Shown here: in pieces, positions 2,957 to 60,656 of the stretch
How the letters are laid out: each line of letters opens with the position of its first letter
How positions within the stretch are numbered: position 1 is the first letter of the stretch
IMG/VR virus record: IMGVR_UViG_2524614843_000001
Location: 39,279 to 103,278 of that record
Origin: a virus
Lineage: Duplodnaviria; Heunggongvirae; Uroviricota; Caudoviricetes
DNA: 64,000 nt
Strand: one strand, 5' to 3'
Program-made: the position numbers and the translations under genes
The notes under the pieces: model-generated
Told to the model about the DNA's origin: nothing
Databases searched by the model: none
The model's input: only the letters and a program-made list of their open reading frames with translations

Positions 2957-4213
2957 TCACAAAGAAACGCCCAAAATTTGAACACGGCGCATCGGAAATT
3001 CGAGCTCAATTGGATAGCCAATCGCGTCAGCAATGTGCTCGATACCGGCGCTCTTATCCACTTCGCGCGAACCTTTCTTGTAGAGCACCTGCTCAAATGC
3101 CTTAATCAGATGCTTGCAGCGCTCATCGATGCGCAGAATGACCCGACCGGATGCCGACATAAGCAGTCGATTGACCGCATTGACCCGATCTGCCACTGGA
3201 GGGTGCTTCTTGCGGTACTTAATACGCTTGAAGCCGATCTCTCGCATGATGTCGAGGTCAGACTCACCACGACCATGCTGCCGGCTGGCACCGGCTGGGT
3301 CGGGGTAAAGCGTGATCTGGTTCTTGCCCAGGTAGCGCCAGTAGCGCCGCTCTAACTCGGCGCCCATATCTTCGGTGTTAGAGCTGAACCGCACGCACTC
3401 ATCGACCGCCCACACCTCGCCGTTTGGTTGCGGCTGCAGGATGATTGCGCTCATTGGGTCAATGTTGAAGTCCTGACCAATCCAAATGGGCAAGGCCGGA
3501 TTGAAGTCGTACTTCCCGACATGCACGTTCCGGTCGAAGGTGTAGTACACCCGTCCGCTCATGGTCTCGAACGCCGCGTTGAACTCCTGGTTGAACGTCT
3601 TTTCATCCATATCCGCCTTCGCCGCTTCAATTTCCTCGGGCGGAATAAAGGGCGACATGAGCGTAGGGAACTGCCAGCTCATCCAAGTGCGGCCGTCGCG
3701 CTGCCCCATCATGAAAAGCTTGTGCAAATGGTTGTAGGCCTTTGGCGTTCCGATGATCAGCGCATGACCCAACGTAGAGGCAAGGGTTGGGCGAAGCACC
3801 GTTTCCCACACCTCGGGCTTAATGTCCTGAAACTCGTCCAGCACCACAAAATGCAGACCAACGCCTCGCAAGGTGTCTGGTTTATCCGCACCTTTGAGCT
3901 CGATAATCGTCCCATTGACCAGATGAATGATCATCATGGTTTCATTCATACGTCTGATCAATTTGCGGGGTATAGCGTCGGTAAGCTCGCGCCACATGAT
4001 CTGGCGAGCCATACGGTAGGTAGGCGCCACGTACCAGATCAGCTGCTTAGGCTTAGCCGCATACTTGATGATCGAGATTTTTGAGAGCTGTGTTTTGCCC
4101 CAGCGCCGACCTGCAACCACGACCTTGTAGCGCGCTGGATGCCGATAAACGAGCATCTGGCCGCGATGAAGCTTGAGCGATTGCCGCTTTTTGGCCGTCG
4201 GAACAGTGATCAT
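2957..4213 (-). CDS. terL: Terminase large subunit
   Basis: 418 aa; Walker A VVAGRRWGKT, Walker B-like VVLDEF; C-terminal nuclease-like region; overlaps terS stop. Confidence 0.8.
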   Translation of the reverse strand: MITVPTAKKRQSLKLHRGQMLVYRHPARYKVVVAGRRWGKTQLSKISIIKYAAKPKQLIWYVAPTYRMARQIMWRELTDAIPRKLIRRMNETMMIIHLVNGTIIELKGADKPDTLRGVGLHFVVLDEFQDIKPEVWETVLRPTLASTLGHALIIGTPKAYNHLHKLFMMGQRDGRTWMSWQFPTLMSPFIPPEEIEAAKADMDEKTFNQEFNAAFETMSGRVYYTFDRNVHVGKYDFNPALPIWIGQDFNIDPMSAIILQPQPNGEVWAVDECVRFSSNTEDMGAELERRYWRYLGKNQITLYPDPAGASRQHGRGESDLDIMREIGFKRIKYRKKHPPVADRVNAVNRLLMSASGRVILRIDERCKHLIKAFEQVLYKKGSREVDKSAGIEHIADAIGYPIELEFPMRRVQILGVSL

Positions 4214-4866
4214 TCCGGCACCTCGCTCTCGTCCACCTCGCTCTCGTCATCGACCTCTTCGACTACGCCAGGCTCAAGACCAAACTCTTCCAAATCTTGA
4301 ATTTCCGGCATCGACATGGCTGCGCGCTGCTGGTTGCGGATTTCCTCAACCTCATTGGCCGACAGCTCGGAAATCTCAAAGCCAGGCAACTCCTCTGCGC
4401 CACCCTCTTCTTCTTTGATGCCCAGCAAGATGTACTCTTCGGTGCGCAACTTGCTCATTGCCTCGACACCTAGCTTGATGGTCATCATGGTGTCTTTGAG
4501 GCTATCCATCGAAAAGCCGGCAGGGTTCTCGACGAAGCTCTTTGCAGACAGAGCAGAAATGCTATTGAGCAAGTAGGACAGGCGCTGAGCGGTCTGGATA
4601 TGGCGCTTTTTGGCGTCCTCTTGCAGCTTGAGCTTTTCGTCACGCAGAGCTAGCTCCCGAGCCATGCGCTCTTCGCGCTCTTTCTCTGCCAGCTCGCGGG
4701 CTGCGCGCCCTTTAACCGCACCCAACTCTTTGATCACCCGGGCGATGGTGCCGCGATGCCGATCAAATGCCTTGGCAATCTGCTCGATGCTGGCGTCCAT
4801 CTCGTACATCTCGGCGATTTTCTGTTTTTCCGCCTCGGTCAGACGTGTTTTCGTTTCGCTAGTCAT
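4210..4866 (-). CDS. terS: Terminase small subunit (HTH DNA-binding, acidic C-terminus), putative
   Basis: 218 aa; N-terminal HTH-like segment (IEQIAKAFDRHRGTIARVIKE), coiled-coil, acidic tail; immediately upstream of terL with 4-nt overlap. Confidence 0.5.
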   Translation of the reverse strand: MTSETKTRLTEAEKQKIAEMYEMDASIEQIAKAFDRHRGTIARVIKELGAVKGRAARELAEKEREERMARELALRDEKLKLQEDAKKRHIQTAQRLSYLLNSISALSAKSFVENPAGFSMDSLKDTMMTIKLGVEAMSKLRTEEYILLGIKEEEGGAEELPGFEISELSANEVEEIRNQQRAAMSMPEIQDLEEFGLEPGVVEEVDDESEVDESEVPE

Positions 4867-4879
4867 ACCAATTCAAGTC

Positions 4880-4913
4880 AATAAAAAAAGGGGCAGCGTT
4901 TTACCGCCGCCCC
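4880..4913 (-). terminator. Hairpin plus U-tract (minus-strand sense) 14 nt upstream of terS ATG
   Basis: GGGGCAGCG-ttttac-CGCCGCCCC stem preceded on plus by A8 (U-run on minus transcript). Confidence 0.45.
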
Positions 4914-4988
4914 TTGCACAAACAGGAACCGAACAAGTCTCGCTAAACGCACGACTTGGTTTCATATTACGGCGTTTTAATAACATAA

Positions 4989-5006
4989 GTCAACAGTGAC
5001 TTACTA
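4989..5006 (-). promoter_or_regulatory. Class-A motif copy; its TTGACT half-site plus TAATAT 18 bp downstream form a sigma70-like promoter reading toward terS
   Basis: Minus strand reads TAGTAAGTCACTGTTGACTtatgttattaaaacgccgTAATAT. Confidence 0.45.
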
Positions 5007-5008
5007 TC

Positions 5009-5141
5009 TAATCCGGAGTAGATCGTGGATAGGTAGAAGTTGGGAATTTTTATGCTTTCCAATATTTATTAACTACAGATAGATAGAAAGATAATATCTA
5101 TTGGAGCGTCAAGATTTTCCCAACTCAACCTCTCCGGATTA
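5009..5141. repeat. Nested inverted-repeat element, copy 1 (TAATCCGGAG...GTTGGGAA...CCAATA-[AT-rich core TTAACTACAG + GATAGATAGAAAG]-TATTGG...TTCCCAAC...CTCCGGATTA)
   Basis: Three concentric inverted-repeat pairs around an AT-rich core; second copy at 17699-17860. Confidence 0.7.
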
Positions 5142-5453
5142 CTTCTCCGCGGTAGGCTTTGCAACGAAATTAAGCGCCCCTCGCCGGCTCGCAGCCAAGA
5201 TGCGGAAGGCTTCAAGCGTTGGCTTCCAGAGGTGTCGCTCCTTACCCTCTTCGACGATCACTTCACAGGCGGCAAGACCGTACTGCTGCAGATATGTCAG
5301 AGTGCAGCGCAGCGCACGCGGTGTCGGCGCGTAGCTGAGCATCAAGCGCAGCTCATTCGTCCGGATGGCCTTGCACGCCTCATTCTCATGACAGAGCCTT
5401 GCCAACACCTCCATCTGCTTTACGGTACCGGCGAACTGTTTGACCTTCTTCAT
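5139..5453 (-). CDS. Hypothetical protein (104 aa), last gene of ParB/ABC/GNAT operon
   Basis: GGAGGGA RBS; start overlaps stop of upstream GNAT-like gene. Confidence 0.5.
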   Translation of the reverse strand: MKKVKQFAGTVKQMEVLARLCHENEACKAIRTNELRLMLSYAPTPRALRCTLTYLQQYGLAACEVIVEEGKERHLWKPTLEAFRILAASRRGALNFVAKPTAEK

Positions 5454-6346: not shown

Positions 6347-7054
6347 TCACTCTCCCGCGCGTTCTGAGCGCGTTTCTGCGTCATTCCGGACGATCTCGAC
6401 TTTCTCCCCGTAATACTTCTCCAGAATCAGGGACGGGTTGAGATCTTCGACCAGATCGCCGTGCGTGGTGGCGACGATCAGAGTCTTGCCGGCGCGGCGT
6501 GCAGCCTGCTGCAGTTGGTACGAGATTGCCTTTGCGGTGTTCCGGTCGAGCACGGCGCCGAACTCGTCGGCAACCCATACATCGGCATCGCTGCTCAGCA
6601 TATAGGCAAGCAATAGACGGTATTTCTGGCCATCCGACAGTTCGCCCGGGCGCCGGATGACGAGGTTTGCGTCATTGATACCGCCAAGAGACAGCAGCCG
6701 GATGGCTTCTTGCATGTCACCATTGGGCGCCAGCTGGTCCACCAGCGGCAGATTCGGGTCGAAAAGCTGACTCAAAACGCCATCTGAGGCCAACCCAATC
6801 GAGCCGACTTTCAAGCCGGCCGTTGCCAGCTGGCGAGCAGTTTCTCGCAGCGCGATGGATTTGCCGGAGCCGGATTCGCCTGTGATGTAGAAAACGTCGC
6901 CCTGCTCGATCTCGAACTGCAGGTTGTCGTAGATGGTGAACTGCTTGTCGTCCAAACCAACGCCAAACATTTCTGCGACCTGGCGCACGCGCTCAGTGCG
7001 CATAACTGACATGGCAAAGGCGACGTTCAGAGTGATGGTGTGTTTCCAGCTCAT
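6347..7054 (-). CDS. Stand-alone ABC-type ATPase (235 aa)
   Basis: Walker A GESGSGKS, ABC signature LSDGQKYRL, Walker B VWVADEF, H-loop TTHGD; ATGA overlap with upstream ParB-like gene. Confidence 0.7.
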   Translation of the reverse strand: MSWKHTITLNVAFAMSVMRTERVRQVAEMFGVGLDDKQFTIYDNLQFEIEQGDVFYITGESGSGKSIALRETARQLATAGLKVGSIGLASDGVLSQLFDPNLPLVDQLAPNGDMQEAIRLLSLGGINDANLVIRRPGELSDGQKYRLLLAYMLSSDADVWVADEFGAVLDRNTAKAISYQLQQAARRAGKTLIVATTHGDLVEDLNPSLILEKYYGEKVEIVRNDAETRSERAGE

Positions 7055-7737
7055 GCCGCGGCTCCTTCAAGATAGCGGCCGGCGAAGTCCATGAATGCGT
7101 CCTTGCCTTCCTTGCCGGTAGCGCCCTCAATCATGGCCATGAAGCGAGTCAGCCGACGTTGCTCTTCCACGGTGACGTGCTTGAAGCCCAGCACCTTGTC
7201 GATATTCACCTTCTCGGCATCGACGGTCTCGATTTTTTCCGCCGTCGAGGTGGCAATCGAGGTGCTTGCAGCAAGTAAGTTATCCACCGTTTCATTGAGG
7301 TCGATTTCATCGATCTTGAAGTCGCGCAGCAGCTTATCGAGCTCGCCGGTGTCGATTGCGGTCAGCTCGGCCAGCTCGGAAACATCGAAAGACAGATCAC
7401 GCAGCTCGGCGGTCAGGAAGTCGAAGTTGGTTTCGCCCAGCTCGCCCATGCGGTTGTCGTTGATGCGGAACAGGCGCTTGTCCTCTTCCGACATGCCGGT
7501 GACAACCAGTACCGGTACCGATTTGAGCTCTAGTTCCAGCGCAGCCAGTCGGCGACCATGACCGGCCATGATGACGAAGTTTTCATCGACGATGATGGGC
7601 GGTCCGGCCCAGCCTCGCTTCATGTTGGCCGCGAGCGCCTTGATCTGGCTCGGTGGGTGATTCTTGGGGTTCCGATCATAGGGAACCAGCTTCTCGATTG
7701 GGAAGTTGTTATGAAGTTCGCGCTTGATGTGTTCCAT
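7051..7737 (-). CDS. ParB N-terminal (ParB/Srx nuclease-like) domain protein 2
   Basis: 228 aa; ParB-box-like GHGRRLAALE; acidic C-terminal half. Confidence 0.6.
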   Translation of the reverse strand: MEHIKRELHNNFPIEKLVPYDRNPKNHPPSQIKALAANMKRGWAGPPIIVDENFVIMAGHGRRLAALELELKSVPVLVVTGMSEEDKRLFRINDNRMGELGETNFDFLTAELRDLSFDVSELAELTAIDTGELDKLLRDFKIDEIDLNETVDNLLAASTSIATSTAEKIETVDAEKVNIDKVLGFKHVTVEEQRRLTRFMAMIEGATGKEGKDAFMDFAGRYLEGAAA

Positions 7738-8489: not shown

Positions 8490-10187
8490 ATGAATCAACC
8501 AACTGTCCAAATCGTACACAACGCAATCACCGCAAAGTTGCTGTGTGAAAACCGAGAGGTTCAGCTGTACGTCGCCAAGCTCATGAGCTACGCGGTTTCG
8601 GGCGCCGAGCACAGCAAGGCGGTCAAAAGCCACGCCTGGGACGGCCGCAGCTCGTTTTTCTCTATGCGCGATCAGACGTTTCCTGCCGGATTCGTCAATA
8701 TGGTGCGCGATTCGCTGACCAAGCTGGGCATCAACTGCGCCGTTCGCGCGAAGCCACTTCCTGAGCCGCTCGGGCCGGAGGACTTTTGGAACGCCGACGG
8801 CATCGGTAACAGCGACGAGCGCTACGACTACCAGCCAGAGACCATCCACCGCCTGCTCAAGCACGGTCGGGGCATTGCGCAGATCGCAACCGGTGGCGGT
8901 AAATCACGCATCTGCCGGCTGGCCTACGCCCGCATCAATCGCCCCACCCTCTTCCTGACAACTCGTTCGGTGCTGATGTACCAGATGAAGAAGAACTTTG
9001 AGGATACCTTTAAAGAGGAAGTCGCTGTTCTGGGCGATGGCGAGTTTGGCATCGAGTACGCCAAGACTGACGGTACCAAAGGGCGCCGGCTGACCAAGTT
9101 CACTGTTGCCATGATTCAAACGCTCGCTTCCAGACTGGAAATGCCGGCTGAGATTGGCGCGCGTGAGCGTCGGCGCGCAAACGAAGTGCTGAACAAGGCC
9201 GCGGAGAAGGCGCGGAAAATGACCGCGGAAGCTGCCGCCAAGTACATTGAGCAAGCAAAGCGCCAGTCCGAAGAAATCATCGCCAGCATTCCAGCCAAGG
9301 AAGAAGCACAGCGCCGTCGGCGTGAGGCAACCATCCAGATTCTCTCGCGCTTCGAGTTCGTGGTGCTGGAGGAAGCGCACGAAGCGTCCGGCAACAGCTA
9401 CTACGAGATCTGCCAGCACTGCACCAATGCGCACTACCGGCTCGCGCTGACCGCCACCCCGTTCATGAAGGGCGACGAGGAAGCGAACATGCGCCTGATG
9501 GCTGTGTCCGGTCAGGTGTTTATCAAGGTCTCCGAGAAGCTGCTGATCGATCGTGGCATCCTTGCCCGCCCCTACTTCAAGTTTATCCGGTTGCTAGAAA
9601 AGCCAAAGGGGCTCAATCGCACGACGGCCTGGCAGAAGGCCTACAAGATGGGCGTGACTGAAAATCCTCACCGGAACAAGGCCATCATCCGTGAGGCGTA
9701 CAAGGCTGCATCAATCGGACTGCCGGTGATGATTCTGGTACAGGCAAAGGTGCATGGCGCGCTGCTCGATGACACCCTGAAAAAGCTCGGTATCCGGTCG
9801 AGCTACATTTTCGGCGACAGCTCGCAGGAAGAGCGCGAGCGTGAGCTCGGCAAGCTCAAGTCGGGCGAAACCCAAGTGCTGATCGGCTCAACGATTCTGG
9901 ATGTGGGTGTGGACGTGCCGGCCGTCGGGATGGTGATTCTGGCTGGTGGCGGGAAGGCGGAAGTTGCCCTTCGCCAGCGTATCGGGCGCGGACTGCGAGC
10001 GAAGAAGGACATGCCAAACGTGTGTCTGGTCGTGGATTTCGACGATCATCACAACAACCATCTGTACGACCATGCGATGACTCGCCAGTACCACATCCGG
10101 AATACGCCAGGCTTCGCGGAAGGGGTGCTGGCGGCAGGGGGCGAATTTGACTATCTCGGTCTTGGGCTCATAAAATCAGCAGCGTAA
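8490..10187 (+). CDS. Superfamily-2 DNA helicase (DEAD/DEAH-box, UvsW/type III res-like) with coiled-coil insertion
   Basis: 565 aa; Walker A IATGGGKS, motif II VLEEAH, motif VI QRIGRGLR; only large plus-strand core gene. Confidence 0.8.
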   Translation: MNQPTVQIVHNAITAKLLCENREVQLYVAKLMSYAVSGAEHSKAVKSHAWDGRSSFFSMRDQTFPAGFVNMVRDSLTKLGINCAVRAKPLPEPLGPEDFWNADGIGNSDERYDYQPETIHRLLKHGRGIAQIATGGGKSRICRLAYARINRPTLFLTTRSVLMYQMKKNFEDTFKEEVAVLGDGEFGIEYAKTDGTKGRRLTKFTVAMIQTLASRLEMPAEIGARERRRANEVLNKAAEKARKMTAEAAAKYIEQAKRQSEEIIASIPAKEEAQRRRREATIQILSRFEFVVLEEAHEASGNSYYEICQHCTNAHYRLALTATPFMKGDEEANMRLMAVSGQVFIKVSEKLLIDRGILARPYFKFIRLLEKPKGLNRTTAWQKAYKMGVTENPHRNKAIIREAYKAASIGLPVMILVQAKVHGALLDDTLKKLGIRSSYIFGDSSQEERERELGKLKSGETQVLIGSTILDVGVDVPAVGMVILAGGGKAEVALRQRIGRGLRAKKDMPNVCLVVDFDDHHNNHLYDHAMTRQYHIRNTPGFAEGVLAAGGEFDYLGLGLIKSAA

Positions 10188-16252: not shown

Positions 16253-16597
16253 TCAAGCGATCAGCATTTTGACGCGGCGGGAGATCTCATTGAATACAGA
16301 ATTGCCAAGCGTGGCCACTTTCACGCCATTGCGCGCCACAATATCAATCGTGCGGATTTGCAGCGGGTCGATGTAGCCGGAAACTGGCATACCGACAGGG
16401 AGTGGAATATCTGTTTTTTGCGGACCATTATTGCGTGTCGTGATGGGAATAACGATCGCATAGTTGGTCGCTTTGAATTCAGGTATGGAAATAATCAGGA
16501 CTTTGCGCGCGTTCTTGTAGTCCATTTCGCGGCCTAATGAACCAGCATCAGGATGTTGCAGCTCGACAATATCGCCAGGATTGAATGAATGGGACAT
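16253..16597 (-). CDS. mazF: MazF/PemK-family endoribonuclease toxin
   Basis: 114 aa; GDIV...PITTR...I.IVAR pattern of MazF/PemK/CcdB fold. Confidence 0.7.
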   Translation of the reverse strand: MSHSFNPGDIVELQHPDAGSLGREMDYKNARKVLIISIPEFKATNYAIVIPITTRNNGPQKTDIPLPVGMPVSGYIDPLQIRTIDIVARNGVKVATLGNSVFNEISRRVKMLIA

Positions 16598-16664: not shown

Positions 16665-17048
16665 TCAAATCACCACTTCCTCGCCTACAGGTCCGCCAAA
16701 GTCAGCGAGCGTGTAGTCAGCCGAGAGTTGGGACAGGCCGGCGAGAAAATCGTCTTGCGCGATACTGGGCAGATTAAAGTTGATGATCGGCGTATTGTCG
16801 GCGCCTTGCAGTACCCGAGCCTCACCTTGATCGACCTGCTTGCGGACCAGGAAGAAGGTTTCGCCTTCGATTTCAACCTCATGCCACTCGACCGCATCAC
16901 CGCGCTCCAGATGCAGGCGTTTACGCACCGGCGCACTGACGATGGCCGAGAGTGAGTTGCCGACGGCGGCGATTTTAGTGGTAGCGAAGGCTGCGGCTTC
17001 GCCGCTCACGATTTGGTGGCCGAGCTCTTCGAGTGTGGCGGTTTGCAT
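16665..17048 (-). CDS. mazE: MazE/AbrB-family antitoxin (swapped-hairpin domain) with C-terminal extension
   Basis: 127 aa; VGNSLSAIVSAPVRKRLHLERGDAVEWHEV matches MazE/AbrB looped-hinge helix; 67 nt upstream of toxin. Confidence 0.6.
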   Translation of the reverse strand: MQTATLEELGHQIVSGEAAAFATTKIAAVGNSLSAIVSAPVRKRLHLERGDAVEWHEVEIEGETFFLVRKQVDQGEARVLQGADNTPIINFNLPSIAQDDFLAGLSQLSADYTLADFGGPVGEEVVI

Positions 17049-17090
17049 GTTCGTGTCCTCAGTACGTTATAACGTGATGTTATCACATAA
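17049..17090 (-). promoter_or_regulatory. Putative autoregulated TA promoter/operator (palindromes ACGTTATAACGT and GTGATgttATCAC)
   Basis: Palindromes immediately upstream of antitoxin start. Confidence 0.4.
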
Positions 17091-17524
17091 ATTTACGCAC
17101 GCAAGATGGCACTCTGATACAGCCCTGCACCCGCGGCCAGCAGCACGCTAACCGATTATGCTGCCCCGAGCTGAAAAGACAATAGCGATTCCCGACGCAG
17201 AAACCCATCAAATTTCGATTTTCTACCCCTCGGGTATATCACGACTCATCTGAGACGGGAAAATCGCTTAAATCGGGTTTATGCGGATTTCTCGGGCAGG
17301 CGGTCCAAATTGAGCACCACGGCACCCCTACACAACCACCTCTGCCCTCTCCCTCGACCAGTGACCCGCGCGGCGCATCCCACGGCCAAGCCAACCTCCT
17401 GCCTGGGAGTGGACTGCGCGCGCCGGTACCCTATATTGGCCGCCCGCCCCGAAATTTCCGGACAGCCTGGGCGCTGATATTGGCCACCCCGAGCCACCCG
17501 CAGTCAGCCTTGGTCAACCACGGC

Positions 17525-17552
17525 GAGACTGATCTGCCGAGAGTGAGGATGA
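17525..17552 (+). repeat. 28-bp direct repeat (iteron-like) copy 1: GAGACTGatcTGCCgAGAGTGAGGATGa
   Basis: One of 4 same-orientation copies. Confidence 0.7.
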
Positions 17553-17594
17553 CCAGGCTGCGGGACAGGCCGGATACCCGAGGGCGAGTACCGG

Positions 17595-17622
17595 AGAGAC
17601 TGGCGTGCCTAGAGTGGGGATG
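17595..17622 (+). repeat. Iteron-like repeat copy 2
   Basis: GAGACTGGCGTGCCTAGAGTGGGGATGG. Confidence 0.7.
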
Positions 17623-17698
17623 GCTCGTTCCTGAGCCGTGGGTGGCCGCGGCCAGGCTTTCACTCCCAATCCGGAAGTGGCGGACTGCCTGCGGCTCG

Positions 17699-17860
17699 TA
17701 ATCCGGAGGGTGGAGCAACTCGTCTGCTGAGTGGTTGGGAAGTTGGGAAGGTCAGAGTTGGGAAAAAGTGCTCGTCCCAATAGTTTTTATATTAACTACA
17801 GTGGATATATTAAATATTGGTGTGAGGAAAAATTCCCAACTTTTAGGCTCTCTCCGGATT
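17699..17860. repeat. Nested inverted-repeat element, copy 2 (TAATCCGGAG...GTTGGGAA x3...CCAATA-[AT core TTAACTACAG]-TATTGG...TTCCCAAC...CTCCGGATTA)
   Basis: Same architecture and orientation as copy 1 at 5009-5141; flanked by iteron-like repeats. Confidence 0.7.
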
Positions 17861-17881
17861 ACTCAAGAAAATCAATGGTTT

Positions 17882-17909
17882 GAGACTGGTTTGCCTAGAG
17901 TGAGGATGA
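17882..17909 (+). repeat. Iteron-like repeat copy 3
   Basis: GAGACTGGTTTGCCTAGAGTGAGGATGA. Confidence 0.7.
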
Positions 17910-18030
17910 GGCACTCCGGAAGTGCGTCAAACTGCCATTTTCCCAACTCCAAGGCGCCTCATTCCCAACTGCCTCTGTCATACCCTTCCGACCCATACAC
18001 GCGCACAGGCCGGGACTCGGGAAAGGCCTT

Positions 18031-18363
18031 TTAGTGGATGCTGTACTGCCACTGCAGCACGCGCGTCTGGTCCATCAGATCGCCAATCAGTCCGCGCGAC
18101 GCATTCTTCGCCGGAGACTTCCAAGACGCTGCCTTCCACAAGGTCAGGTCAGACAAACGCACAAACCCCCAAGCGGAACGCGAGTAGATATTGCCGGTCT
18201 CACGATCACGACGCACCATCACCAGGCGGGCATAGACCTTGCCATACTCCGCTTCGATGGTCAGCTCTTCATGCTTGTGCAGGCTCGGGTATTCCTTGGC
18301 CATGCGCTCACGCAAGATCTCAGTGGCACGAGTGATGGCATTCTGGATGGCTGTTGATGACAT
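18031..18363 (-). CDS. Hypothetical protein (110 aa)
   Basis: Start at MSSTAIQN with GGAGGA RBS; lies inside the non-coding repeat region. Confidence 0.45.
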   Translation of the reverse strand: MSSTAIQNAITRATEILRERMAKEYPSLHKHEELTIEAEYGKVYARLVMVRRDRETGNIYSRSAWGFVRLSDLTLWKAASWKSPAKNASRGLIGDLMDQTRVLQWQYSIH

Positions 18364-18448
18364 GAGGCATTCCTCCGTGTTGTTGACGGACTCATGTTCA
18401 TGTCTGCCTAGTGGCGCGTGCGCGGTAATCCGGAGTAGCCCGCGGCGA

Positions 18449-18476
18449 GAGACTGGTGTGACCAGAGTGAGGATGG
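18449..18476 (+). repeat. Iteron-like repeat copy 4 (preceded by TAATCCGGAGTAG half-site)
   Basis: GAGACTGGTGTGACCAGAGTGAGGATGG. Confidence 0.7.
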
Positions 18477-18526
18477 GCAGGACGTGCCAAGGTAGGGAGA
18501 GGAAAGGCACAGCCGAGGGAGCCGGC

Positions 18527-18715
18527 CCCACTCCCCGCCTCCTGTCCTTCGCCTCTGCGTCCTGTCGCTTGATCTATCTTCCTTACCTGTGTCCTACCCT
18601 TAGCCCCTACGTGTCCTACTACTTGCGCCCCTATACCCTACCTGCGCGTCTACTTACCCCTCTCTACCTAACCCTACTCTCTCTCGTACCTGTCTGATCT
18701 GTCTCTACCCTATCC
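18527..18715 (+). repeat. About 190-bp polypyrimidine (C/T >85%) tract
   Basis: Strongly strand-asymmetric composition, non-coding. Confidence 0.6.
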
Positions 18716-18728
18716 GGAGTGTCTGTGT

Positions 18729-18965
18729 TTACGGGCGATGCTTGTTAGATGAGGTGGTTGCTAGAGGTGTGTATTTGCCTTGTCGTAAATCCATTTTAGA
18801 GAGCAGTTCGAGTAGCTCTGGTGTGACTTGGATGACGTACCACACTCCCCCGATGAGCAGATAGCAATTAGGGTATTGCAGATCGTAGGCATCAATCTGT
18901 GTGTCGGAAGTGATGGTGATTTCTTCTGTTGAGTTTGGGTCTGTTGATTTGGCGATGAGGGGCAT
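18729..18965 (-). CDS. Hypothetical small protein (78 aa)
   Basis: ORF only; low support. Confidence 0.3.
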   Translation of the reverse strand: MPLIAKSTDPNSTEEITITSDTQIDAYDLQYPNCYLLIGGVWYVIQVTPELLELLSKMDLRQGKYTPLATTSSNKHRP

Positions 18966-19548
18966 GGATAGGTTCTCTTTGTGAAAATGGATGGCGTACC
19001 TCAGTCTGGATGAGGCCTGTCTGTGTGGAAGTATTCTGCCTGAATTGGATGGCGTTTTCTGGTTTGGCCTGTCTCTCTGTCTGTTTCTCTTCCTATCTAT
19101 CTATCGCTCTATCTCTCTGTCTAGCGGGAATGACGTTTCCCTGCGCTCTGCTGCGTTTTCGTGTGTCCGGATGAGTCGTGATATGTCCGGAGCTTGCCCG
19201 CGCGCTCTGTGTGCGATTGTGCGGATTTGTCTGGATGGATGACGAATGTGAGGGAGGATGAATTACCGGAGCAGGCTGATCATGTGTTTTTTGCTGCATT
19301 GATGCTGCATTTCTTCGCGAAGGCTTGAAATTATTGGCATTTTGAATAGGCGGAAATCGAAAGCCTATTTGCATTAAACCATTGTGAATACGACATACGA
19401 GCGTTGATTTGCGGCAGGATTGCGTCACTTTTACAGCAAACAGCGCTGGTTGAATCTTGGAATGCAGATATATTTGGAGGCATGAATAATTAGGTCTTAC
19501 CATATTGCCCATATACACACTTAATCATCTACCATTTGGGAGAATCTC

Positions 19549-31129: not shown

Positions 31130-31437
31130 GCCGCCACCCCGCTCACTGAGTCAGGCACCCGCATCCAGCATTGAATCCAGACCGCATCATGGGCTTCACT
31201 CACAACGGCATCGTCATCGACGGCGATATGATCTTCTGCCATCAAACGACCGATTTTGATTTCCTTCTCGGTAGCCTGGCGCCGGCCAACTTGGGCGTTG
31301 TGTATCTTCACGATATGAATTGCATCGTCGAGGTCCATCGGGCCAGCAACAAGACAACCTTCTTCATCCAGCACAACGCCACGCTTGAAGGGCTCGCCGG
31401 TTTTGATTTCGTCATAAGACCAACGTGATTCGTTCAT
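31126..31437 (-). CDS. Hypothetical protein (103 aa)
   Basis: ORF. Confidence 0.5.
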   Translation of the reverse strand: MNESRWSYDEIKTGEPFKRGVVLDEEGCLVAGPMDLDDAIHIVKIHNAQVGRRQATEKEIKIGRLMAEDHIAVDDDAVVSEAHDAVWIQCWMRVPDSVSGVAA

Positions 31438-49949: not shown

Positions 49950-50436
49950 AAACGGGCAATAAAAATAGCTGACGCTCGGCGGTACGACGGCGCACCAGTC
50001 CAGGCTGACGCTTACCCATTGCAAAAACCCACTTGTTAAACTCCTCCGCGGCCTTGTAGTAGTTACCGGAATTGAGGTGACGGAGCAGGGTGCTATCGCC
50101 CAATCCTTCCGCGATGTTGTCCTGATCAATATCCGGACCCACATTGAAGGTGAAGGATACGATGGCGTCGAACTGGTTCTGATTCAGAGGAACGCGAACC
50201 AGCTTGAGTACCGCCTTCTCAATTCTCAACAAGTCCTTGTCGAAGATTTCTTCGGCTTGAGCGGCGGTTATCCCTTTCATCATCCACTCGTCGCCAGCTT
50301 CAATCTTGTGGCCCCAGCCTATCGTCCAGTATCCGGCCGGACACTTATAAGGCTTTAAGGCCACCTGATCGGATTGCTCAAATTTCTTAATGATCGCTCG
50401 GCCGCGCTGACCGGTTCTCATCGCAGTGCTTGCCAT
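49948..50436 (-). CDS. Glycoside hydrolase family 24 lysozyme (T4/lambda-type endolysin)
   Basis: Start at MASTAM with AGGAGG RBS; FEQ...YKCPAGYWTIGWGH, GL..RR..E..LF motifs. Confidence 0.75.
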   Translation of the reverse strand: MASTAMRTGQRGRAIIKKFEQSDQVALKPYKCPAGYWTIGWGHKIEAGDEWMMKGITAAQAEEIFDKDLLRIEKAVLKLVRVPLNQNQFDAIVSFTFNVGPDIDQDNIAEGLGDSTLLRHLNSGNYYKAAEEFNKWVFAMGKRQPGLVRRRTAERQLFLLPV

Positions 50437-56766: not shown

Positions 56767-58002
56767 CTAGTTCACAGCTTCCGCCACACGGCGGAATACT
56801 TCATTGAGCGTGGCTTGCTTGCTGTCATCGAACAGCACTTGACCAGGCGAAATGCCGACGATGATCGTGGCGTTGTACTTGGCCGAGAAAATGGCGGTAC
56901 CAGGCTCGGGCTTGCGCGCATCCGGCAGGAAGTAGCGGGTCGCGGCAGAGCCCAGCGTGACGATCACTGGCGGCGCCAGAATCTCGATCTCCCGCTCGAT
57001 GTACTGCGAGCAGGCGGCGATCTGTGCGTCGGCAAGGAACTTCTCGTCCTTCGGCTTGGGCGACTTCACCAGCGCAGTCCAATACCCGTTATCGAAGGTC
57101 AGATAGTTCACGCCCAGCGCGGTGCGGGTTACATCCTCCATCGAGTCGGTCAGCACCTTGCCATTGCGCTCGTCACGGAAGCTTGGCGCGTCGATCACTG
57201 CCATGAACTTCGGCTGCCGACCGATGCGGGGCGACGGATGCACACCGCCCGCCAGTGAGCAGGCGGTGCATTGCTTGGCGTCGCGCAGAGTGATCATCAG
57301 CTTTTCCTTCACGAACTTGCCGGCTTCGATGTTGCGATCAGCCTTCACCACGCCGGAGATCAGGCCAGGCAACAGCTCGATCTGATCTTTCAGGCGCTCG
57401 TTGTGAAGTGCTGGAAGCTGTGAGGGTTCGATGCCGGCAAAGGCGCCGACACGATCAAGGCAGTCGCGCACTTTGACGTTGACCTTCGACTTGTTCACGC
57501 GCGCCTCGAAGTTCTCTTTCGAGGTGAATGGGCCAGCAGGCAACGCCTCGCATACCAGATTGCCCTTCTTGTCGAACTCTTCGACCTTTGCCGAATTGCG
57601 CGCCTGCACGATCAGCTCTGCAGTGGTGGTCGAGATACCCTTCACGCGATTGAAGGGCATAACCAGCGTGACTTTGCTGCGCGCCACGTCATAGCCGATC
57701 TCGAAGCGGTCAGCGCTGGAGAGGTTCACATCGGGCGGAACCAGCAGCAGACCGGCGTTCTCAGCGTCACGCACCAGACCAGGCAGCTTGTCCTCGTCCA
57801 GAACAGACAGACAGGCAGCGTAGAACTCAGCCGGATAGTTCACTTTCAGCCACATGGACTGATAGCTGATCAGCGAGTAGGCAACGGCATGACTTTTGTT
57901 AAAACCATAGGCGCCGAAGGCCATAATCTGACTCCAGAGAGCCTCTGCGTCCGCTTTGCTCATGCCGTTTTCGAGTACGCGGCTTGATACGATCTTGGCC
58001 AT
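56767..58002 (-). CDS. dnaE: DNA polymerase III alpha (DnaE) C-terminal fragment fused to a degenerate family-4 UDG-like domain
   Basis: GAYGFNKSHAVAYSLISYQ (DnaE fingers hallmark); C-terminal about 180 aa align to family-4 uracil-DNA glycosylase (CTACSL, VIVTLGSAATRYFL) but GEGPG motif is IDAPS and catalytic His replaced. Confidence 0.75.
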   Translation of the reverse strand: MAKIVSSRVLENGMSKADAEALWSQIMAFGAYGFNKSHAVAYSLISYQSMWLKVNYPAEFYAACLSVLDEDKLPGLVRDAENAGLLLVPPDVNLSSADRFEIGYDVARSKVTLVMPFNRVKGISTTTAELIVQARNSAKVEEFDKKGNLVCEALPAGPFTSKENFEARVNKSKVNVKVRDCLDRVGAFAGIEPSQLPALHNERLKDQIELLPGLISGVVKADRNIEAGKFVKEKLMITLRDAKQCTACSLAGGVHPSPRIGRQPKFMAVIDAPSFRDERNGKVLTDSMEDVTRTALGVNYLTFDNGYWTALVKSPKPKDEKFLADAQIAACSQYIEREIEILAPPVIVTLGSAATRYFLPDARKPEPGTAIFSAKYNATIIVGISPGQVLFDDSKQATLNEVFRRVAEAVN

Positions 58003-58289: not shown

Positions 58290-60656
58290 TTACAGGGCGA
58301 GCTCAACCCCGCGCGCAATCGCTTCCTCGACAGTCAGCAGTTCATCGCTATCCACCGCCTTGTACCGCGTTGCACGATGGACTGTGAGCGTCCTGCCGTC
58401 ATCGAGCGTGACTTCAATCTGACCGAGTTCAGCGCCGGAAATGAATGACGCGCCAATCTTGGCCATCTTGTCCATATCCTTCTTACCTATGGCCTTGCGG
58501 AGCCCGTCTGCGCCCGCCATCGTGAAGCCGCACAGATCTCGGGCGACCTGCATGACTTCCTCTTGGTACACGATGACGCCATAGGTATCCTTGAGCGCGT
58601 CCTCGCAGAGCGGGTGCGGATAGCTGACCGGCTCCAACCCTTGCTTGCGGGCGACAAACTGATCGAGCAGACCGGAATCCAGCGGGCCAGGACGATAAAG
58701 CGCCGTCGCTGCCGCAATATCCTCGAAGGTCAGCGCCTCGTAGCTCGCCAGATCTTTGAGCAGCTTCATCATGCCGCCCGACTCGAACTGGAACACGCCG
58801 ATGGTCTTGCCTTGCCCGAAGCCCTCCAGCGTGATCGTGTCATCGAGGGGCAGATCGAGCAGATCGGGCGTTTTGCCGTGCCGCTCCTTGATGTAGTCCA
58901 GAACCAGCGAAGTCAGATCGAGCGTGGTCAGCCCGAGAATATCCATCTTCACCAAGCCCATGTCCTCGACGGTGCGCTTGTCCCAATTCGTTGTCGGTTG
59001 GCCAGAGCGCATTTCCACGACCGCGCGCTCGTTGATCGGTACGCCGGCAATCACAATGCCTGCAGCGTGACGACCCAGCGACCGGTTGTGATCTTCCAGC
59101 GCCAGGGAATGCTGCCAGAGCTCCGGATAGCGCTCGGAATAGGTCTTAATTGCCCCGACTTGCTCAGCGGCTTCTGCCATCGGGGCGACCATGCCATGCT
59201 CTTTCGGGTAGAGCTTCGTGCATTCCAGATCGCCATTTGGTACCTCGAACACGCGACCCACATCACGGATTGCAGAGGCGCCGGCCAGCGTCGTGAAGTT
59301 GGAGATGCCCGCCACGTAATCAGCACCGAATTTCTCGGTAATGTGGTTGATGACGAGCTCGCGGCGAGTGGCCTGAAAATCCAAGTCCGCGTCAGGCAAG
59401 TCCAGACGTTCTGGATTGATGAAGCGCTCGAAAATCAGACCGTGCCGGATAGGGTCAACATCCGTGATACCGAGCAGGAAAGCGACCAGAGAACCACCCA
59501 CGGAACCCCGACCTGGCCCGACAGCGACGCCGTTTTGTTTCGCCCAGCGGGTGATGTAGCGCGCCAGCAGGAAGTAGCCGCAGAAGCCCAGCTTGGACAG
59601 CACGCCAAGCTCGTATTTGAGCCGCTCCATGTAATGCGGGAGATCTGCCTTGCTCGGCTTGTAGCCGAAGGAGGAGCCCTCAACCAGACGCTCGACAAAG
59701 GCGCGCTTACATAGCTCAACCAGCGCCAACTCTTCCTTCTCGACGAGTTTGGGTAATGACACTGGCCATTTTGACCAGGTGTAATCACACATACTCTCGA
59801 CAACCGCCATGTTCCTGATTGCACCCTTGAGCCGCTCCATATCAAGCGCCTCATCGAACAGCTTGAGATAGGTCTCGCCAAAGGCTTTGCATTCCGCGGC
59901 GAACTCCGCAGGACTGAGGATGCTCAGGTTGCCGGAGATCTGCGAAGGCGCAATCCGCCAGCCATCCTTCATCTTGTTGTTGCTGCACACAGCCGCGTAC
60001 ACATCGAGGGAGTTACTTTGTGACGGGTCTGCTAGCAGCGCAGGGCGCGTCGCTACGACCGGTATACCCGTTGCGTGGGCATATCCGAGCACATCGCGGC
60101 CAATGCGCGCAAACAGCGGATTATTGACGACAGGAAGCTCAATAAAGAGCGCGTGGGGCTGCGCAGCCCGCAGTTTGTCCAGACGCTCATAAGCTGTCGC
60201 TTGATCGACTTTGTAGAGCGCGCCCAGCAGATCACCAGTCATCACGACCAGACCATCCGGTGCAGACGCGATATGCTCCAGCACCTCGTCGAAACTGAGG
60301 CGCGGGAAGTAGTAGAAGTGGCTTTCCGAGTTAGCGAGGCTCAGCAGCTTGAAGATCGCCTTGAGCCCGCTTTCGTTACGTACCAACAACCGCAAAGTGA
60401 ATGAGCGCGGACGCTTCACCTCTGCAGATTTCTCGGTCGGGTCACACAGCACGACCTCAACTGTCACGCCGATGATTGGCTTGATGCCGGCGTCCTTCGC
60501 TGCAGTCATCAGCGCCGGCATTCCTGAGACGGTCATCTTGTCCGTAATGGCAATGGCCGTCAGTCCCTTCTCGACCGCCTGCGCCACCGCTTTCTTTACT
60601 GATAGCAGTGAGCCGCCAATCGTGAAGTCACTACGCACACCAAGAGCAACTTTCAT
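58290..60656 (-). CDS. dnaE: DNA polymerase III alpha (DnaE) N-terminal fragment (PHP, palm, thumb, part of fingers)
   Basis: 788 aa; PHP domain start MKVALGVRSDF, palm motifs; homology ends about 40 aa before stop. Confidence 0.8.
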   Translation of the reverse strand: MKVALGVRSDFTIGGSLLSVKKAVAQAVEKGLTAIAITDKMTVSGMPALMTAAKDAGIKPIIGVTVEVVLCDPTEKSAEVKRPRSFTLRLLVRNESGLKAIFKLLSLANSESHFYYFPRLSFDEVLEHIASAPDGLVVMTGDLLGALYKVDQATAYERLDKLRAAQPHALFIELPVVNNPLFARIGRDVLGYAHATGIPVVATRPALLADPSQSNSLDVYAAVCSNNKMKDGWRIAPSQISGNLSILSPAEFAAECKAFGETYLKLFDEALDMERLKGAIRNMAVVESMCDYTWSKWPVSLPKLVEKEELALVELCKRAFVERLVEGSSFGYKPSKADLPHYMERLKYELGVLSKLGFCGYFLLARYITRWAKQNGVAVGPGRGSVGGSLVAFLLGITDVDPIRHGLIFERFINPERLDLPDADLDFQATRRELVINHITEKFGADYVAGISNFTTLAGASAIRDVGRVFEVPNGDLECTKLYPKEHGMVAPMAEAAEQVGAIKTYSERYPELWQHSLALEDHNRSLGRHAAGIVIAGVPINERAVVEMRSGQPTTNWDKRTVEDMGLVKMDILGLTTLDLTSLVLDYIKERHGKTPDLLDLPLDDTITLEGFGQGKTIGVFQFESGGMMKLLKDLASYEALTFEDIAAATALYRPGPLDSGLLDQFVARKQGLEPVSYPHPLCEDALKDTYGVIVYQEEVMQVARDLCGFTMAGADGLRKAIGKKDMDKMAKIGASFISGAELGQIEVTLDDGRTLTVHRATRYKAVDSDELLTVEEAIARGVELAL

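Follow-up and report, generated by a model that had tools for sequence, protein, structure and literature searches.

A pair of nested inverted repeats, laid out on one plan around an AT-rich core, is present in a phage-plasmid-like siphovirus genome of Chitinibacter tainanensis (64 kb of DNA, hereafter the window), and comparison of the two copies with related genomes places a long inverted repeat with an AT-rich centre in the same position there. Judging from sequence comparison, the element may be a DNA-level control site for a transcription unit, in which symmetric protein-binding arms surround the AT-rich core. This reading is tentative, and such a role appears more likely than that of a packaging site. 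A complex operator or promoter was one of three functions offered by the initial annotation of this DNA, and it fits the comparative data best of the three.

Distant kin of the window include SSU5, Cyrano, Pseudomonas phage nickie and Rhizobium phage RHEph10/RHph_N1_10, and proteins of the window share only ~35-60% identity with those of relatives bearing equivalent copies. Relatives were gathered via the portal protein and an ABC-like protein; a word-indexed search with the terS-like and winged-helix proteins returned self matches only and detected no relatives. IMG/VR contains 370 relatives, and 967 records of the plasmid collection have a match, including plasmids of Klebsiella, Escherichia, Acinetobacter, Yersinia and Salmonella. 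Members of the group carry resistance and virulence cargo. In such a very large group of phages and phage-plasmids, a few-copy element at block borders is an obvious place to seek control; for this one there is a specific candidate for the binding protein, and its motifs can be tested. Were it to govern the lytic blocks as their master switch, the quiescence of these plasmids in their hosts and their induction would be easier to understand. Nothing was found in the literature on block switching, replication start or packaging of SSU5/nickie/RHEph10-type genomes, and palindromes of this kind were not found described.

Anatomy and surroundings of the two copies

Copy A (5009..5141) and copy B (17698..17862), both assigned the minus strand of the flanking genes, share the plan TAATCCGGAG ... 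GTTGGGAA-N12-CCAATA, an AT-rich core with TTAACTACAG, and TATTGG-N12-TTCCCAAC ... CTCCGGATTA. Two nested, dyad-symmetric copies of the same architecture had been reported at these positions; both are present there, and the repeat is confirmed as real. In copy A, the outer arms TAATCCGGAG (5009-5018) and CTCCGGATTA (5132-5141) are 100% complementary and enclose the inner sites GTTGGGAA (5039-5046) and TTCCCAAC (5117-5124), the hexamers CCAATA (5059-5064) and TATTGG (5099-5104), and the core 10-mer TTAACTACAG (5069-5078). Copy B has outer arms GTAATCCGGAG (17698-17708) and CTCCGGATTAC (17852-17862), three GTTGGGAA sites (17734, 17742 and 17757), one TTCCCAAC (17833), the hexamers CCAATA (17777-17782) and TATTGG (17815-17820), and the core 10-mer at 17792-17801; with two extra TTCCCAAC found just outside it by motif scan (17940-17947 and 17962-17969), it has three sites per side of the core. 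The asymmetric 10-mer lies on the plus strand in both copies, which bears out the direct orientation described earlier, and the distance from A to B, start to start, is 12,690 bp.

The spacing is more regular than first reported: without exception, 12 nt separate GTTGGGAA from CCAATA in each of the four half-sites. Across the core, the innermost arms lie 32-34 bp apart. All eight matches of GTTGGGAA in the window fall inside the two element regions (1.6 expected; none of 100 shuffles reached 8), TAATCCGGAG has five exact matches, four of which are element ends, and nine matches when one mismatch is allowed (2.3 expected), and the only exact matches of TTAACTACAG are those in the two cores. Both cores are AT-rich troughs with 22-25% GC per 60 nt in a window of 53.8% GC, and are among ~27 troughs of this type in the window. 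The copies are 73% identical (MAFFT), the identity being concentrated in the motif blocks, whereas the sequence between the blocks is neither conserved nor complementary. Discrete blocks at fixed spacing, separated by such stretches, are a signature of protein-binding sites. A recent duplication is rejected, in line with the earlier view of the pair, since the motif blocks alone have been kept and relatives hold equivalent copies at matching sites.

Copy A is flanked upstream by the gene of a 104-aa winged-helix (MarR/PadR-like) protein (5139..5453, minus strand), the stop codon of which lies within the outer arm. Downstream on the sense strand, a sigma-70-like promoter match, TTGACT-18-TAATAT (4964..4993, minus strand; a consensus match only), begins 16 nt from copy A, and the ATG of the terS-like gene (4866, minus strand) lies 143 nt away. 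Between copy A and this ATG, the terminator scan detected an intrinsic-terminator-like hairpin, AAGGGGCGGCGG-TAAAAC-GCTGCCCCTT followed by TTTTTTT (4880..4915, minus strand). The terS-like gene (4210..4866, minus strand) encodes an HTH protein (HTH_38) in the small-terminase position and opens a block with terL (2957-4213), portal (1342-2904) and scaffold (412-1275).

Repeat and motif scans revealed that copy B lies in repeat-rich surroundings (17525..18475, plus strand), which hold four copies of a 27-nt direct repeat, GAGACTGGnnTGnCnAGAGTGrGGATG (12-nt cores at 17540, 17611, 17897 and 18464), an extra TAATCCGGAG at 18426 and a TCCGGA cluster. TCCGGA occurs 39 times in the window against 14.5 expected, with nine occurrences within 17.46-19.19 kb.

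Equivalent elements in related genomes

The relatives' elements were detected by an ungapped inverted-repeat scan; a minimum-free-energy sliding window was dropped as a poor detector in high-GC relatives, in which GC-rich coding windows win. A long inverted repeat with an AT-rich centre is present in the gap between the winged-helix gene and terS in RHph_N1_10, nickie, PhiR41_1, Cyrano and SSU5, and the order winged-helix gene, element, terS, terL is kept in four annotated relatives. Among 75 syntenic IMG/VR loci, 18 distinct relatives have a clear element (a score of at least 11 plus an AT-rich loop) and several more have weaker ones. Arm sequences differ from lineage to lineage; in many relatives the arms are 20-50 bp long and nearly perfect, but unrelated in sequence across lineages.

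Several relatives have more than one copy, and these copies occupy corresponding borders of gene blocks. In Cyrano there are three: one precedes terS, another the helicase/primase block (31.2 kb), and the last follows the nucleotide-metabolism block (78.1 kb), each 0-20 nt past the upstream stop codon and 107-118 nt ahead of the next ATG. RHph_N1_10 also has three (7.45, 21.04 and 50.19 kb), of which the left half alone is exactly conserved in all three, with the right arm decayed in two; in nickie there are at least two, the second after phoH with the same TTAACTACT core. Every copy is placed between co-directional genes; in SSU5-like genomes, RHph_N1_10 and the window, the outer arm begins no more than 20 nt from the stop codon upstream. 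Gene order pairs copy B with the 78.1 kb copy of Cyrano and the 7.45 kb copy of RHph_N1_10, and synteny suggests that A and B are probably part of a set of three, the third lying outside the window. For two IMG/VR relatives, 19-20-mers from the arms gave exact matches at their own terS-proximal element only.

Some short motifs recur despite the divergence of the arms. The TCCGGA palindrome reappears in the outer arms of distant members and lies within 100 nt of the repeat centre in 10 of 33 cases from the loci of 20 relatives. In 35 cores, several motifs are biased toward the sense strand over the reverse complement (AAGAG 11 versus 2, CTTACA 7 versus 1, TAAGAG 6 versus 0, AGAAGT 6 versus 0 and ACTACT 9 versus 3), which argues for a directional signal. 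A downstream intrinsic terminator between element and terS is found in the window, nickie and SSU5-like genomes and in three of 18 other relatives, compared with 2.5% of control windows, and is thus recurrent rather than universal.

The DNA between the copies had been described as an accessory segment from 5.1 to 17.7 kb. It is indeed bracketed by the copies, but its 5.1-10.2 kb portion contains genes common to the whole group (winged-helix, two ABC-ATPase-like, two ParB-like and a UvsW-like helicase), and only ~10.3-17.0 kb, with a MazEF-like pair and unknowns, is variable. Two direct copies 12.7 kb apart, with a corresponding interval of 13.6 kb between the 7.45 kb copy and the terS copy of RHph_N1_10, might suggest the bounds of a long direct terminal repeat or a site-specific recombination pair, by which the interval would be duplicated in virions or excisable, and the dyad with an asymmetric core loosely resembles recombinase sites. 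However, relatives have three copies, the matching interval in Cyrano is 30 kb, the bracketed DNA holds conserved, essential-looking genes and no recombinase gene is adjacent. Core sites of tyrosine recombinases have crossover regions of 6-8 bp, far below the 32-34 bp between the innermost arms. This explanation is very improbable, and recombination between copies A and B, which had been raised earlier, finds no support.

The perfect 10-11 bp terminal inverted repeats and the size of 133-165 bp are also reminiscent of a miniature inverted-repeat transposable element, of which the copies would be remnants. There is no target-site duplication in the flanks, and the position is conserved in distant relatives whose element sequences differ. 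A search of IMG/VR and GTDB genomes with the half-element pattern TAATCCGGAG-N10-40-GTTGGGAA gave chance matches only among the matches listed, and none of the 141 half-element stretches among them had the second half. A mobile element, hardly credible on these grounds, was rejected, as there was no target duplication, no full copy elsewhere among the matches listed and a conserved position in relatives.

Transcription control or RNA hairpin

In the proposed model of transcription control, a set of elements, usually three per genome, would mark transcription-unit borders in SSU5/nickie/RHEph10-type siphoviruses and phage-plasmids. Each would have an AT-rich core, easily melted or bent and carrying short strand-biased motifs, flanked by nested dyad-symmetric protein-binding sites. 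In the window genome, the outer of these sites would contain TCCGGA, and the inner would be the composite half-site GTTGGGAA-N12-CCAATA. If the arms of all copies were occupied by one DNA-binding protein of the phage, a dimer or oligomer, large blocks could be switched together. With the promoter-like sequence (4993-4964) and the terminator (4915-4880), copy A would control whether RNA polymerase enters the terS-terL-portal block, and copy B may play the same part for the leftward block from 17.7 kb.

Adjacency and fold suggest, as the best candidate for binding the arms, the small winged-helix protein whose gene directly precedes copy A (5139..5453). The profile of its family matches the MarR-like PDB structure 2eb7 (E = 9e-6), family members match HTH_27, PadR or MarR_2, and a gene of this family lies immediately upstream of the terS-proximal copy across the group. 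MarR/PadR-type proteins bind palindromes as dimers, and, as would suit the operator of a winged-helix dimer, the half-site GTTGGGAA-N12-CCAATA is inverted in both copies with identical 12-nt spacing. The adjacency of the winged-helix gene, which is its one link to the element, belongs to a conserved gene order anyway.

With regard to promoters, no sigma-70 match of at least 9/12 (hexamers, 16-18 nt spacing) was found within 5009-5141 or 17698-17862; the best by-eye match inside copy A, TTAACT-17-TAATAT, reaches 8/12 and is antisense. Next to copy B there is no sigma-70 consensus match, the sole one being that outside copy A. The window shows no enrichment of TAAATATTG, which belongs to a promoter-like motif that recurs in RHph_N1_10, and a 200-aa ORF at the place of the RHph_N1_10 sigma-factor gene was tested and is not a sigma factor; hence, there is no evidence for phage-specific promoters in the window.

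Three observations sit less easily with a control site. In RHph_N1_10, exact conservation across copies is limited to the left half; the DNA after copy B is GC-rich and non-coding for 650 nt, with no gene directly next to the copy; and the shared ACTAC motif is antisense in the window, opposite to most relatives.

A second, less probable reading, also drawn from sequence features, is that the element acts at the RNA level, forming the tail of the transcript of the upstream block and folding into a long hairpin. Such a hairpin might terminate transcription or stabilise the 3' end, be processed by RNase III, or act in cis as an antitermination RNA for passage of the terS terminator. RNase III separates mRNAs in T7 early RNA, and HK022 put is a cis-acting antitermination RNA. 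Copies A and B each form one long sense-strand hairpin (-43.7 and -46.5 kcal/mol; z = -5.1 and -4.5, respectively), the start of the outer arm so close to the upstream stop codon would suit such a tail, T-runs follow SSU5-like copies 2 and 3, and the separate terminator between element and terS in the window, nickie, SSU5-like genomes and three of 18 others would suit antitermination. In addition, arms are complementary yet unrelated in sequence across lineages, and selection for base pairing would explain such long, near-perfect, lineage-specific arms more simply than co-evolution of protein sites. At one stem pair of SSU5-like genomes, U-G occurs 13 times, U-A and C-G three times each and C-A never, and the four variable pairs together give 21 G-U versus 6 A-C on the sense strand; the position without C-A hints at an RNA or single-strand hairpin. 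However, the sequences behind this G-U excess are related, and it may reflect a single state passed on by descent. In the diverse family, stem mismatches are 12 G-T, 9 A-C and 33 other (random expectation 2:2:8), and the lack of a G-U preference gives no support for an RNA-only structure. Between their motif blocks, A and B show neither complementarity nor compensatory change, and the decay of the right arm in two RHph_N1_10 copies beside an exact left arm also speaks against pairing. No U-tract follows either window copy (sense-strand bases past the 3' arm: GATAGTAAG for A and GAGCCGCAG for B), and the scan, which reports an intrinsic terminator at 4915-4888, found none at either. Against Rfam 15, nothing in the window reached the gathering score; at E <= 1, the region 16900-19100 gave no match, and 4800-5250 only a chance-level one outside the element.

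Replication and packaging

An origin, or an origin plus enhancer, would take the AT-rich core as a DNA-unwinding element and the flanking repeats as initiator-binding sites, with several origins per genome; T4 origins, the P4 ori/crr pair and baculovirus homologous regions are precedents for multiple origins. Copy B comes closest to this arrangement, as repeats lie beside an AT-rich element in an iteron origin and here the core (25% GC) is flanked by three GTTGGGAA octamers per side, within ~1.7 kb of DNA that is largely non-coding and rich in repeats, including the fourfold 27-nt repeat, and that has a purine-rich tract; the core of copy B also contains ATATCCACT on the sense strand, with 7/9 matches to the DnaA box. 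Copy A has one GTTGGGAA per side only. Long perfect palindromes with AT-rich centres extrude cruciforms readily, as might those described here, and the group encodes T4-like UvsW, UvsY, gp32 and RecA-type functions, which make origin-dependent and then recombination-dependent replication plausible. On the other hand, no recognisable initiator gene lies next to either copy, and searches of the neighbouring ORFs, several of which are unknowns, against Pfam, PHROGs and NCBIfam gave no Rep-like match. The plasmid RepA/RepC regions of Cyrano and RHph_N1_10 lie elsewhere with their own repeats, and the compact Cyrano copies have no extra iterons. Placement after stop codons, ~110 nt to the next gene and strand-biased cores fit transcription better, and an origin accounts poorly for 2-3 copies at the same block borders in every lineage examined. 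Such a function, as predicted from these features, is unlikely.

A wider proposal, which we consider equally speculative, is that the 2-3 palindromes per genome form one new architectural system of cruciform-prone loading or initiation sites at block borders in SSU5/pHCM2/pMT1-type phage-plasmids and Nickievirus/RHEph10-type phages. They might be combined origins and enhancers like baculovirus hrs, or loading sites for the ParB-like and ABC-ATPase-like proteins, whose gene cluster is always beside the terS copy; replication, transcription of three gene blocks and packaging could thereby be coupled.

Packaging was also among the functions first offered. The adjacent HTH small-terminase-like protein would then recognise copy A as a pac or cos site, with cleavage in the AT-rich core; further copies would be tolerated as secondary or non-functional sites, and extra pac sites would presumably be non-lethal under headful packaging. 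Its location directly upstream of terS is the usual place of pac/cos, and repeated motifs surround a central AT-rich region, as in P1 pac and SPP1 pacL/pacC/pacR. Moreover, both SSU5 and Cyrano have GenBank records that start within the AT-rich loop of the element, but such record starts may reflect convention, copying or assembly breaks at a palindrome, and in the linear nickie record the element lies ~7.2 kb downstream of the start. The literature yielded no end mapping for phages of the SSU5 type, and the Cyrano paper mentions neither PhageTerm nor termini and has no end mapping for Cyrano. A pac or cos site is expected to be terminase-adjacent and unique, whereas this element, although adjacent, has two copies in the window and 2-3 in relatives, at conserved borders far from terS for which packaging offers no rationale. 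A terminator and a promoter-like site also stand between element and terS. A packaging role therefore seems doubtful from what the sequences offer.

Comparison with known systems

The pac sites of P1 and SPP1 resemble the element in having short motifs in two clusters flanking a centre next to the terminase genes, but they are single per genome and overlap a terminase gene, whereas extra copies are found here at other borders. Similar to T7 RNase III sites and HK022 put, the copies are hairpin-forming intergenic elements recurring within long co-directional units; those sites are ~50-70 nt long with characteristic internal loops or a two-stem fold, while the hairpins here measure 130-170 nt, have AT-rich tops, show no tolerance of G-U across the family and match nothing in Rfam.

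Among replication loci, P4 ori and crr are also two separated loci with the same 8-bp iteron, inverted and direct, that act together, but in P4 the iterons have a binding protein encoded close by, the alpha primase-helicase, and no such initiator lies by either copy here. Baculovirus hrs, likewise AT-rich imperfect palindromes dispersed between gene blocks of a large viral genome, serve as both origins and transcription enhancers (PMC4535591, PMC6669502). They belong to a virus of eukaryotes and are built as tandem arrays, with units of 30-70 bp to which IE1 binds, compared with single units here.

With respect to transcription control, classical MarR operators have half-sites far closer than the 32-34 bp across the core. 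The late control region of lambda (pR', QBE, tR') shares a promoter-like site, a terminator within ~70 nt and a late block next to it, a layout also seen in nickie and SSU5-like genomes. In contrast to lambda, in which the site lies between -35 and -10, the palindrome is upstream of the promoter-like -35, the terminator is confined to some lineages and no Q-like protein was identified. In P1, a phage of the plasmid-prophage type, one regulator switches distant blocks together, and the late promoters have dyad symmetry with a 9-bp inverted repeat. Its operators overlap clear sigma-70 promoters and consist of one asymmetric 17-bp site or a simple pair, whereas the units described here are 130-165 bp long, with nested dyads, a 32-34 bp AT-rich centre, 2-3 copies per genome and no recognisable internal promoter; nevertheless, both the P1 sites (C1 operators and Lpa-dependent late promoters) and these elements present one recognition sequence in several copies at separate operon starts.

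Structure of the Nested Palindromic Element

The two copies of the element, copy A (5009-5141) and copy B (17698-17862), consist of outer, middle and inner inverted arms around an AT-rich core. Copy A has outer arms TAATCCGGAG and CTCCGGATTA, middle arms GTTGGGAA at 5039 and TTCCCAAC at 5117, inner arms CCAATA at 5059 and TATTGG at 5099, and a core containing TTAACTACAG at 5069. Copy B has the same outer arms, three occurrences of GTTGGGAA (17734, 17742 and 17757) with TTCCCAAC at 17833, inner arms CCAATA at 17777 and TATTGG at 17815, and a core 10-mer at 17792 identical to that of copy A; TTCCCAAC was also found nearby at 17940 and 17962. Each of the four half-sites has exactly 12 nt between GTTGGGAA and CCAATA, the inner arms are separated by 34 bp (A) and 32 bp (B), and outer-arm distances vary between the copies. 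As the asymmetric core 10-mer lies on the plus strand in both, A and B form a direct repeat with a spacing of 12,690 bp, and the common architecture and direct orientation proposed in the initial annotation are borne out by the motif positions. Its estimate of about 70% identity is close to the observed 73% overall, which is concentrated in the motif blocks; the DNA between these blocks shows no conservation and no complementarity. Against the 53.8% GC of the window, each core forms an AT-rich trough. All eight GTTGGGAA matches in the 64-kb window fall within the two element regions (1.6 expected), a number reached in none of 100 shuffles, so that chance does not account for the element; in addition, four of the five exact TAATCCGGAG matches are element ends.

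Conservation Upstream of terS

Almost all window genes are on the minus strand. Around copy A, two ParB-like genes (8427-7051) lie upstream of two ABC-ATPase-like genes (7054-5450) and a 104-aa gene (5453-5139), which directly precedes copy A in gene direction and whose TAA stop falls within the outer arm. Copy A is followed by a sigma-70-like match, TTGACT-18-TAATAT (4993-4964), an intrinsic-terminator-like hairpin with a T-run (4915-4880), a gene for a helix-turn-helix protein in the small-terminase position (terS-like, 4866-4210), and then terL, portal and scaffold genes, all on the minus strand. The segment 5450-8427, encoding two ParB_N-domain and two ABC-ATPase-like proteins, is a conserved cluster beside terS, and a divergent UvsW-like helicase gene (8490-10187) faces it. 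Plasmid partition is an unlikely role for this cluster, since it is kept in the virulent Pseudomonas phage nickie as well as in plasmid prophages.

No close DNA-level relative was found among phage or plasmid records, and the terS-like protein is on record from Chitinibacter tainanensis only. Portal proteins of the Rhizobium phages RHEph10 and RHph_N1_10, Salmonella phage SSU5 with its enterobacterial phage-plasmid kin, and nickie share about 50% identity with that of the window. The order helicase (opposite strand)-ParB-ParB-ABC-ABC-small gene-terS-like-terL-portal is kept in RHph_N1_10, nickie, Xanthomonas phage JGB6, the E. coli phage-plasmids PhiR41_1 and Cyrano, and SSU5, and in 75 of 80 IMG/VR loci retrieved via the ABC-like protein. 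The interval between the small gene and terS holds an AT-centred, nested inverted repeat in RHph_N1_10 (TTCCGGAGCCGTCTCCCTTC ... GAAGGGAGGTGGACCCGGAA), nickie (TCCGGG..TCCCTTTC..TTAACTACTTGT ... ACAAGTTGTTAA..GAGGGA..CCCGGA), and PhiR41_1, Cyrano and SSU5 (GGTCTGGGAG..CCTGCTTCTGTATATA ... TATATACAGAAGCAGG..CCCAGACC). In an ungapped scan of the IMG/VR loci, 18 distinct relatives had a strong repeat whose loop is AT-rich, and several more loci had weaker repeats; the arms, frequently perfect, extend to as much as 51 nt, loops have 15-35% GC (vs. 41-68% for the genomes), and most repeats lie some 650-850 nt before the terL start, just upstream of terS. Arm sequences show no kinship from lineage to lineage. 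The palindrome TCCGGA recurs in outer arms across lineages and, in relatives, clusters within 100 nt of the repeat centre; ACTACT occurs in 9 of 35 cores (0.5 expected), and TTAACTAC is present in nickie cores and both window cores. The element is a feature conserved throughout the group.

The location of copy A beside terS would fit a packaging site, as would the GenBank records of SSU5 (JQ965645.1) and Cyrano (OV696614.1), both of which are cut within the AT-rich loop of the palindrome next to terS. These record ends could stem from genuine virion ends, from an assembly breaking off at the palindrome, or from one record having been copied from the other; no experimental end mapping was found in the literature searched. 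A packaging role leaves the extra copies at conserved distant positions unexplained, and we consider it improbable.

Several regulatory-like motifs were also noted in relatives. In Cyrano, seven intergenic sites (59, 84, 29261, 70329, 80552, 81281 and 96288) match the 14-bp palindrome AAACAAGTTGTTT fully or partly, the one at 59 reading AAACAAGTTGGTT; two fall in the interval from the terS-proximal element to its terminator, and the palindrome type is also present in PhiR41_1 (7007-7046 of the stretch examined). These sites look like operators of a second regulator. RHph_N1_10 carries a promoter-like AGTAAATATTGAyTGA about 25-65 nt upstream of nine gene starts (e.g., 48379, 53825, 61847, 64728, 64768, 77431, 84489, 90978 and 92358), with a variant, AATAAATATTGATTGA, in front of terS, and one of its proteins has a sigma-70 region 2 domain; the window yielded no counterpart to the motif or to this protein.

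Copies at Other Block Borders

Several relatives contain more than one copy. Cyrano has three full copies: the first bridges the record junction and precedes terS, the second (31157-31213) precedes the helicase/primase block, and the third (78082-78140) follows the nucleotide-metabolism block. In each case the preceding stop codon is 0-20 nt away and the next ATG 107-118 nt away. The three copies of RHph_N1_10 lie at 7451, at 21040 by terS, and at 50188, where the 'A1 protein' gene follows immediately; all three have an exact left half, TCCGGAGCCGTCTCCCTTC, and two a weaker right half. A second nickie copy lies right after phoH, ahead of replication genes. The numbers of BLAST places per record (three each in PhiR41_1, CMS-2020a and RHEph10, five in Cyrano) agree with multiple copies. 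On a protein-level gene-order map, copy B corresponds to the 78-kb copy of Cyrano and the 7.45-kb copy of RHph_N1_10, whose interval to the terS copy is 13.6 kb, vs. 12.7 kb in the window; the third position, before the replication block, would fall beyond the window. The DNA polymerase III alpha homologue of the window appears split into two ORFs, at 56767-58002 (411 aa) and 58290-60656 (788 aa), neither product being on record with exactly these ends, whereas relatives have a single gene of about 1130 aa.

The copies had been described as bracketing a whole accessory segment (5.1-17.7 kb). Only about 10.3-17 kb of it is variable; 5.1-10.2 kb consists of core genes of the group, so that 'accessory island' is too simple a name for the DNA separating A from B. 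That the copies are terminal-repeat boundaries or recombination sites is very unlikely in view of the three copies in relatives, the matching Cyrano interval of 30 kb and the 32-34 bp centre. A mobile-element remnant is hardly credible, as there is no target duplication, no copy elsewhere among the matches listed, and the position is conserved.

Copy B is situated in about 1.7 kb of mostly non-coding DNA (17049-18728) with one 110-aa gene and extra TAATCCGGAG and TCCGGA sites. A 27-nt direct repeat, GAGACTGGnnTGnCnAGAGTGrGGATG, occurs four times on the plus strand (17525-17551, 17596-17622, 17882-17908 and 18450-18475), only in about 1 kb around copy B (12-nt core, four matches vs. 0.4 expected). 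Its sense-strand reading, CATCCyCACTCTnGGCA, has a loose resemblance to phage promoters of the T3 type, but the window showed no phage RNA polymerase. TCCGGA, which could serve as a site for a protein or for methylation, is found 39 times in the window (14.5 expected), nine of them within 17457-19186, the 1.7 kb around copy B, and two making up the ends of copy A. A non-coding tract of about 240 nt (18480-18720), flanked by the genes at 18031-18363 and 18729-18965, shows extreme strand asymmetry; the tract is pyrimidine-rich on the plus strand, and hence purine- and G-rich on the sense strand, with GGTAGG/GTAGGG-type words, and could be prone to R-loops or G-quadruplexes or specify an untranslated RNA. 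Downstream of copy B (sense), about 650 nt (17049-17698) are GC-rich without a credible ORF, and the first recognisable genes are those for a MazE/AbrB-like antitoxin (16665-17048) and a MazF-like toxin (16253-16597); this pair has its own palindromic operator-like sequence (~17060-17090). Iteron-like octamers, the AT-rich core and the repeat-rich surroundings of copy B would fit a replication origin; however, no recognisable initiator gene adjoins and the plasmid Rep regions of relatives are located elsewhere, and we consider this role improbable.

Possible Function of the Element

The copies occur at the borders of three large co-directional blocks, directly after a stop codon and shortly before the next gene, a placement suggestive of a signal linked to transcription units. 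The strand bias that some core motifs show with respect to the genes would agree with a directional signal, and within this genome only discrete, fixed-spacing blocks are conserved, resembling protein-binding sites rather than a selected stem. The small gene always preceding the terS copy encodes a winged-helix protein by family fold match: a profile of 41 members matched MarR-like PDB chains (E = 9e-6), and single members match HTH_27, PadR and MarR_2. MarR/PadR-type winged-helix proteins bind palindromes as dimers, and the adjacent protein is our best guess for the arm-binding regulator. From the observed anatomy, conservation and protein fold, we infer protein binding and a transcriptional output, and tentatively prefer a DNA-level control site, in which the phage regulator would bind the symmetric arms on either side of the AT-rich core and, by acting on all copies, might switch the gene blocks together. 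The promoter-like site and the terminator that separate copy A from terS suggest that entry into the late block is gated, in a manner recalling the lambda pR'-tR' arrangement.

Two points count against this control site: no sigma-70 promoter was recognisable inside either core or adjoining copy B, and the long, perfect, lineage-specific arms of many relatives would be most simply explained by selection for pairing alone. As to an RNA hairpin, each window copy folds as a single long hairpin (z = -5.1 for A and -4.5 for B), one stem position in the SSU5-like subgroup is T-A, T-G or C-G but never C-A (sense strand), and T-runs lie behind SSU5-like copies 2 and 3. Overall this reading appears rather unlikely; family-wide mismatch counts show no G-U preference (12:9:33 for G-T, A-C and other pairs), the window copies lack U-tracts, and no Rfam family matched.

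No description of these elements was found within the papers searched. What appears to be new is the combination of features: a nested dyad of 130-165 bp with a directional, AT-rich core, present two or three times at fixed block borders, and a winged-helix gene beside it. This combination is common to a very large group of phages and phage-plasmids. As a type, dispersed palindromic control sites of this sort have precedents in the operators and late-promoter repeats of P1, in lambda late control and in baculovirus hrs.
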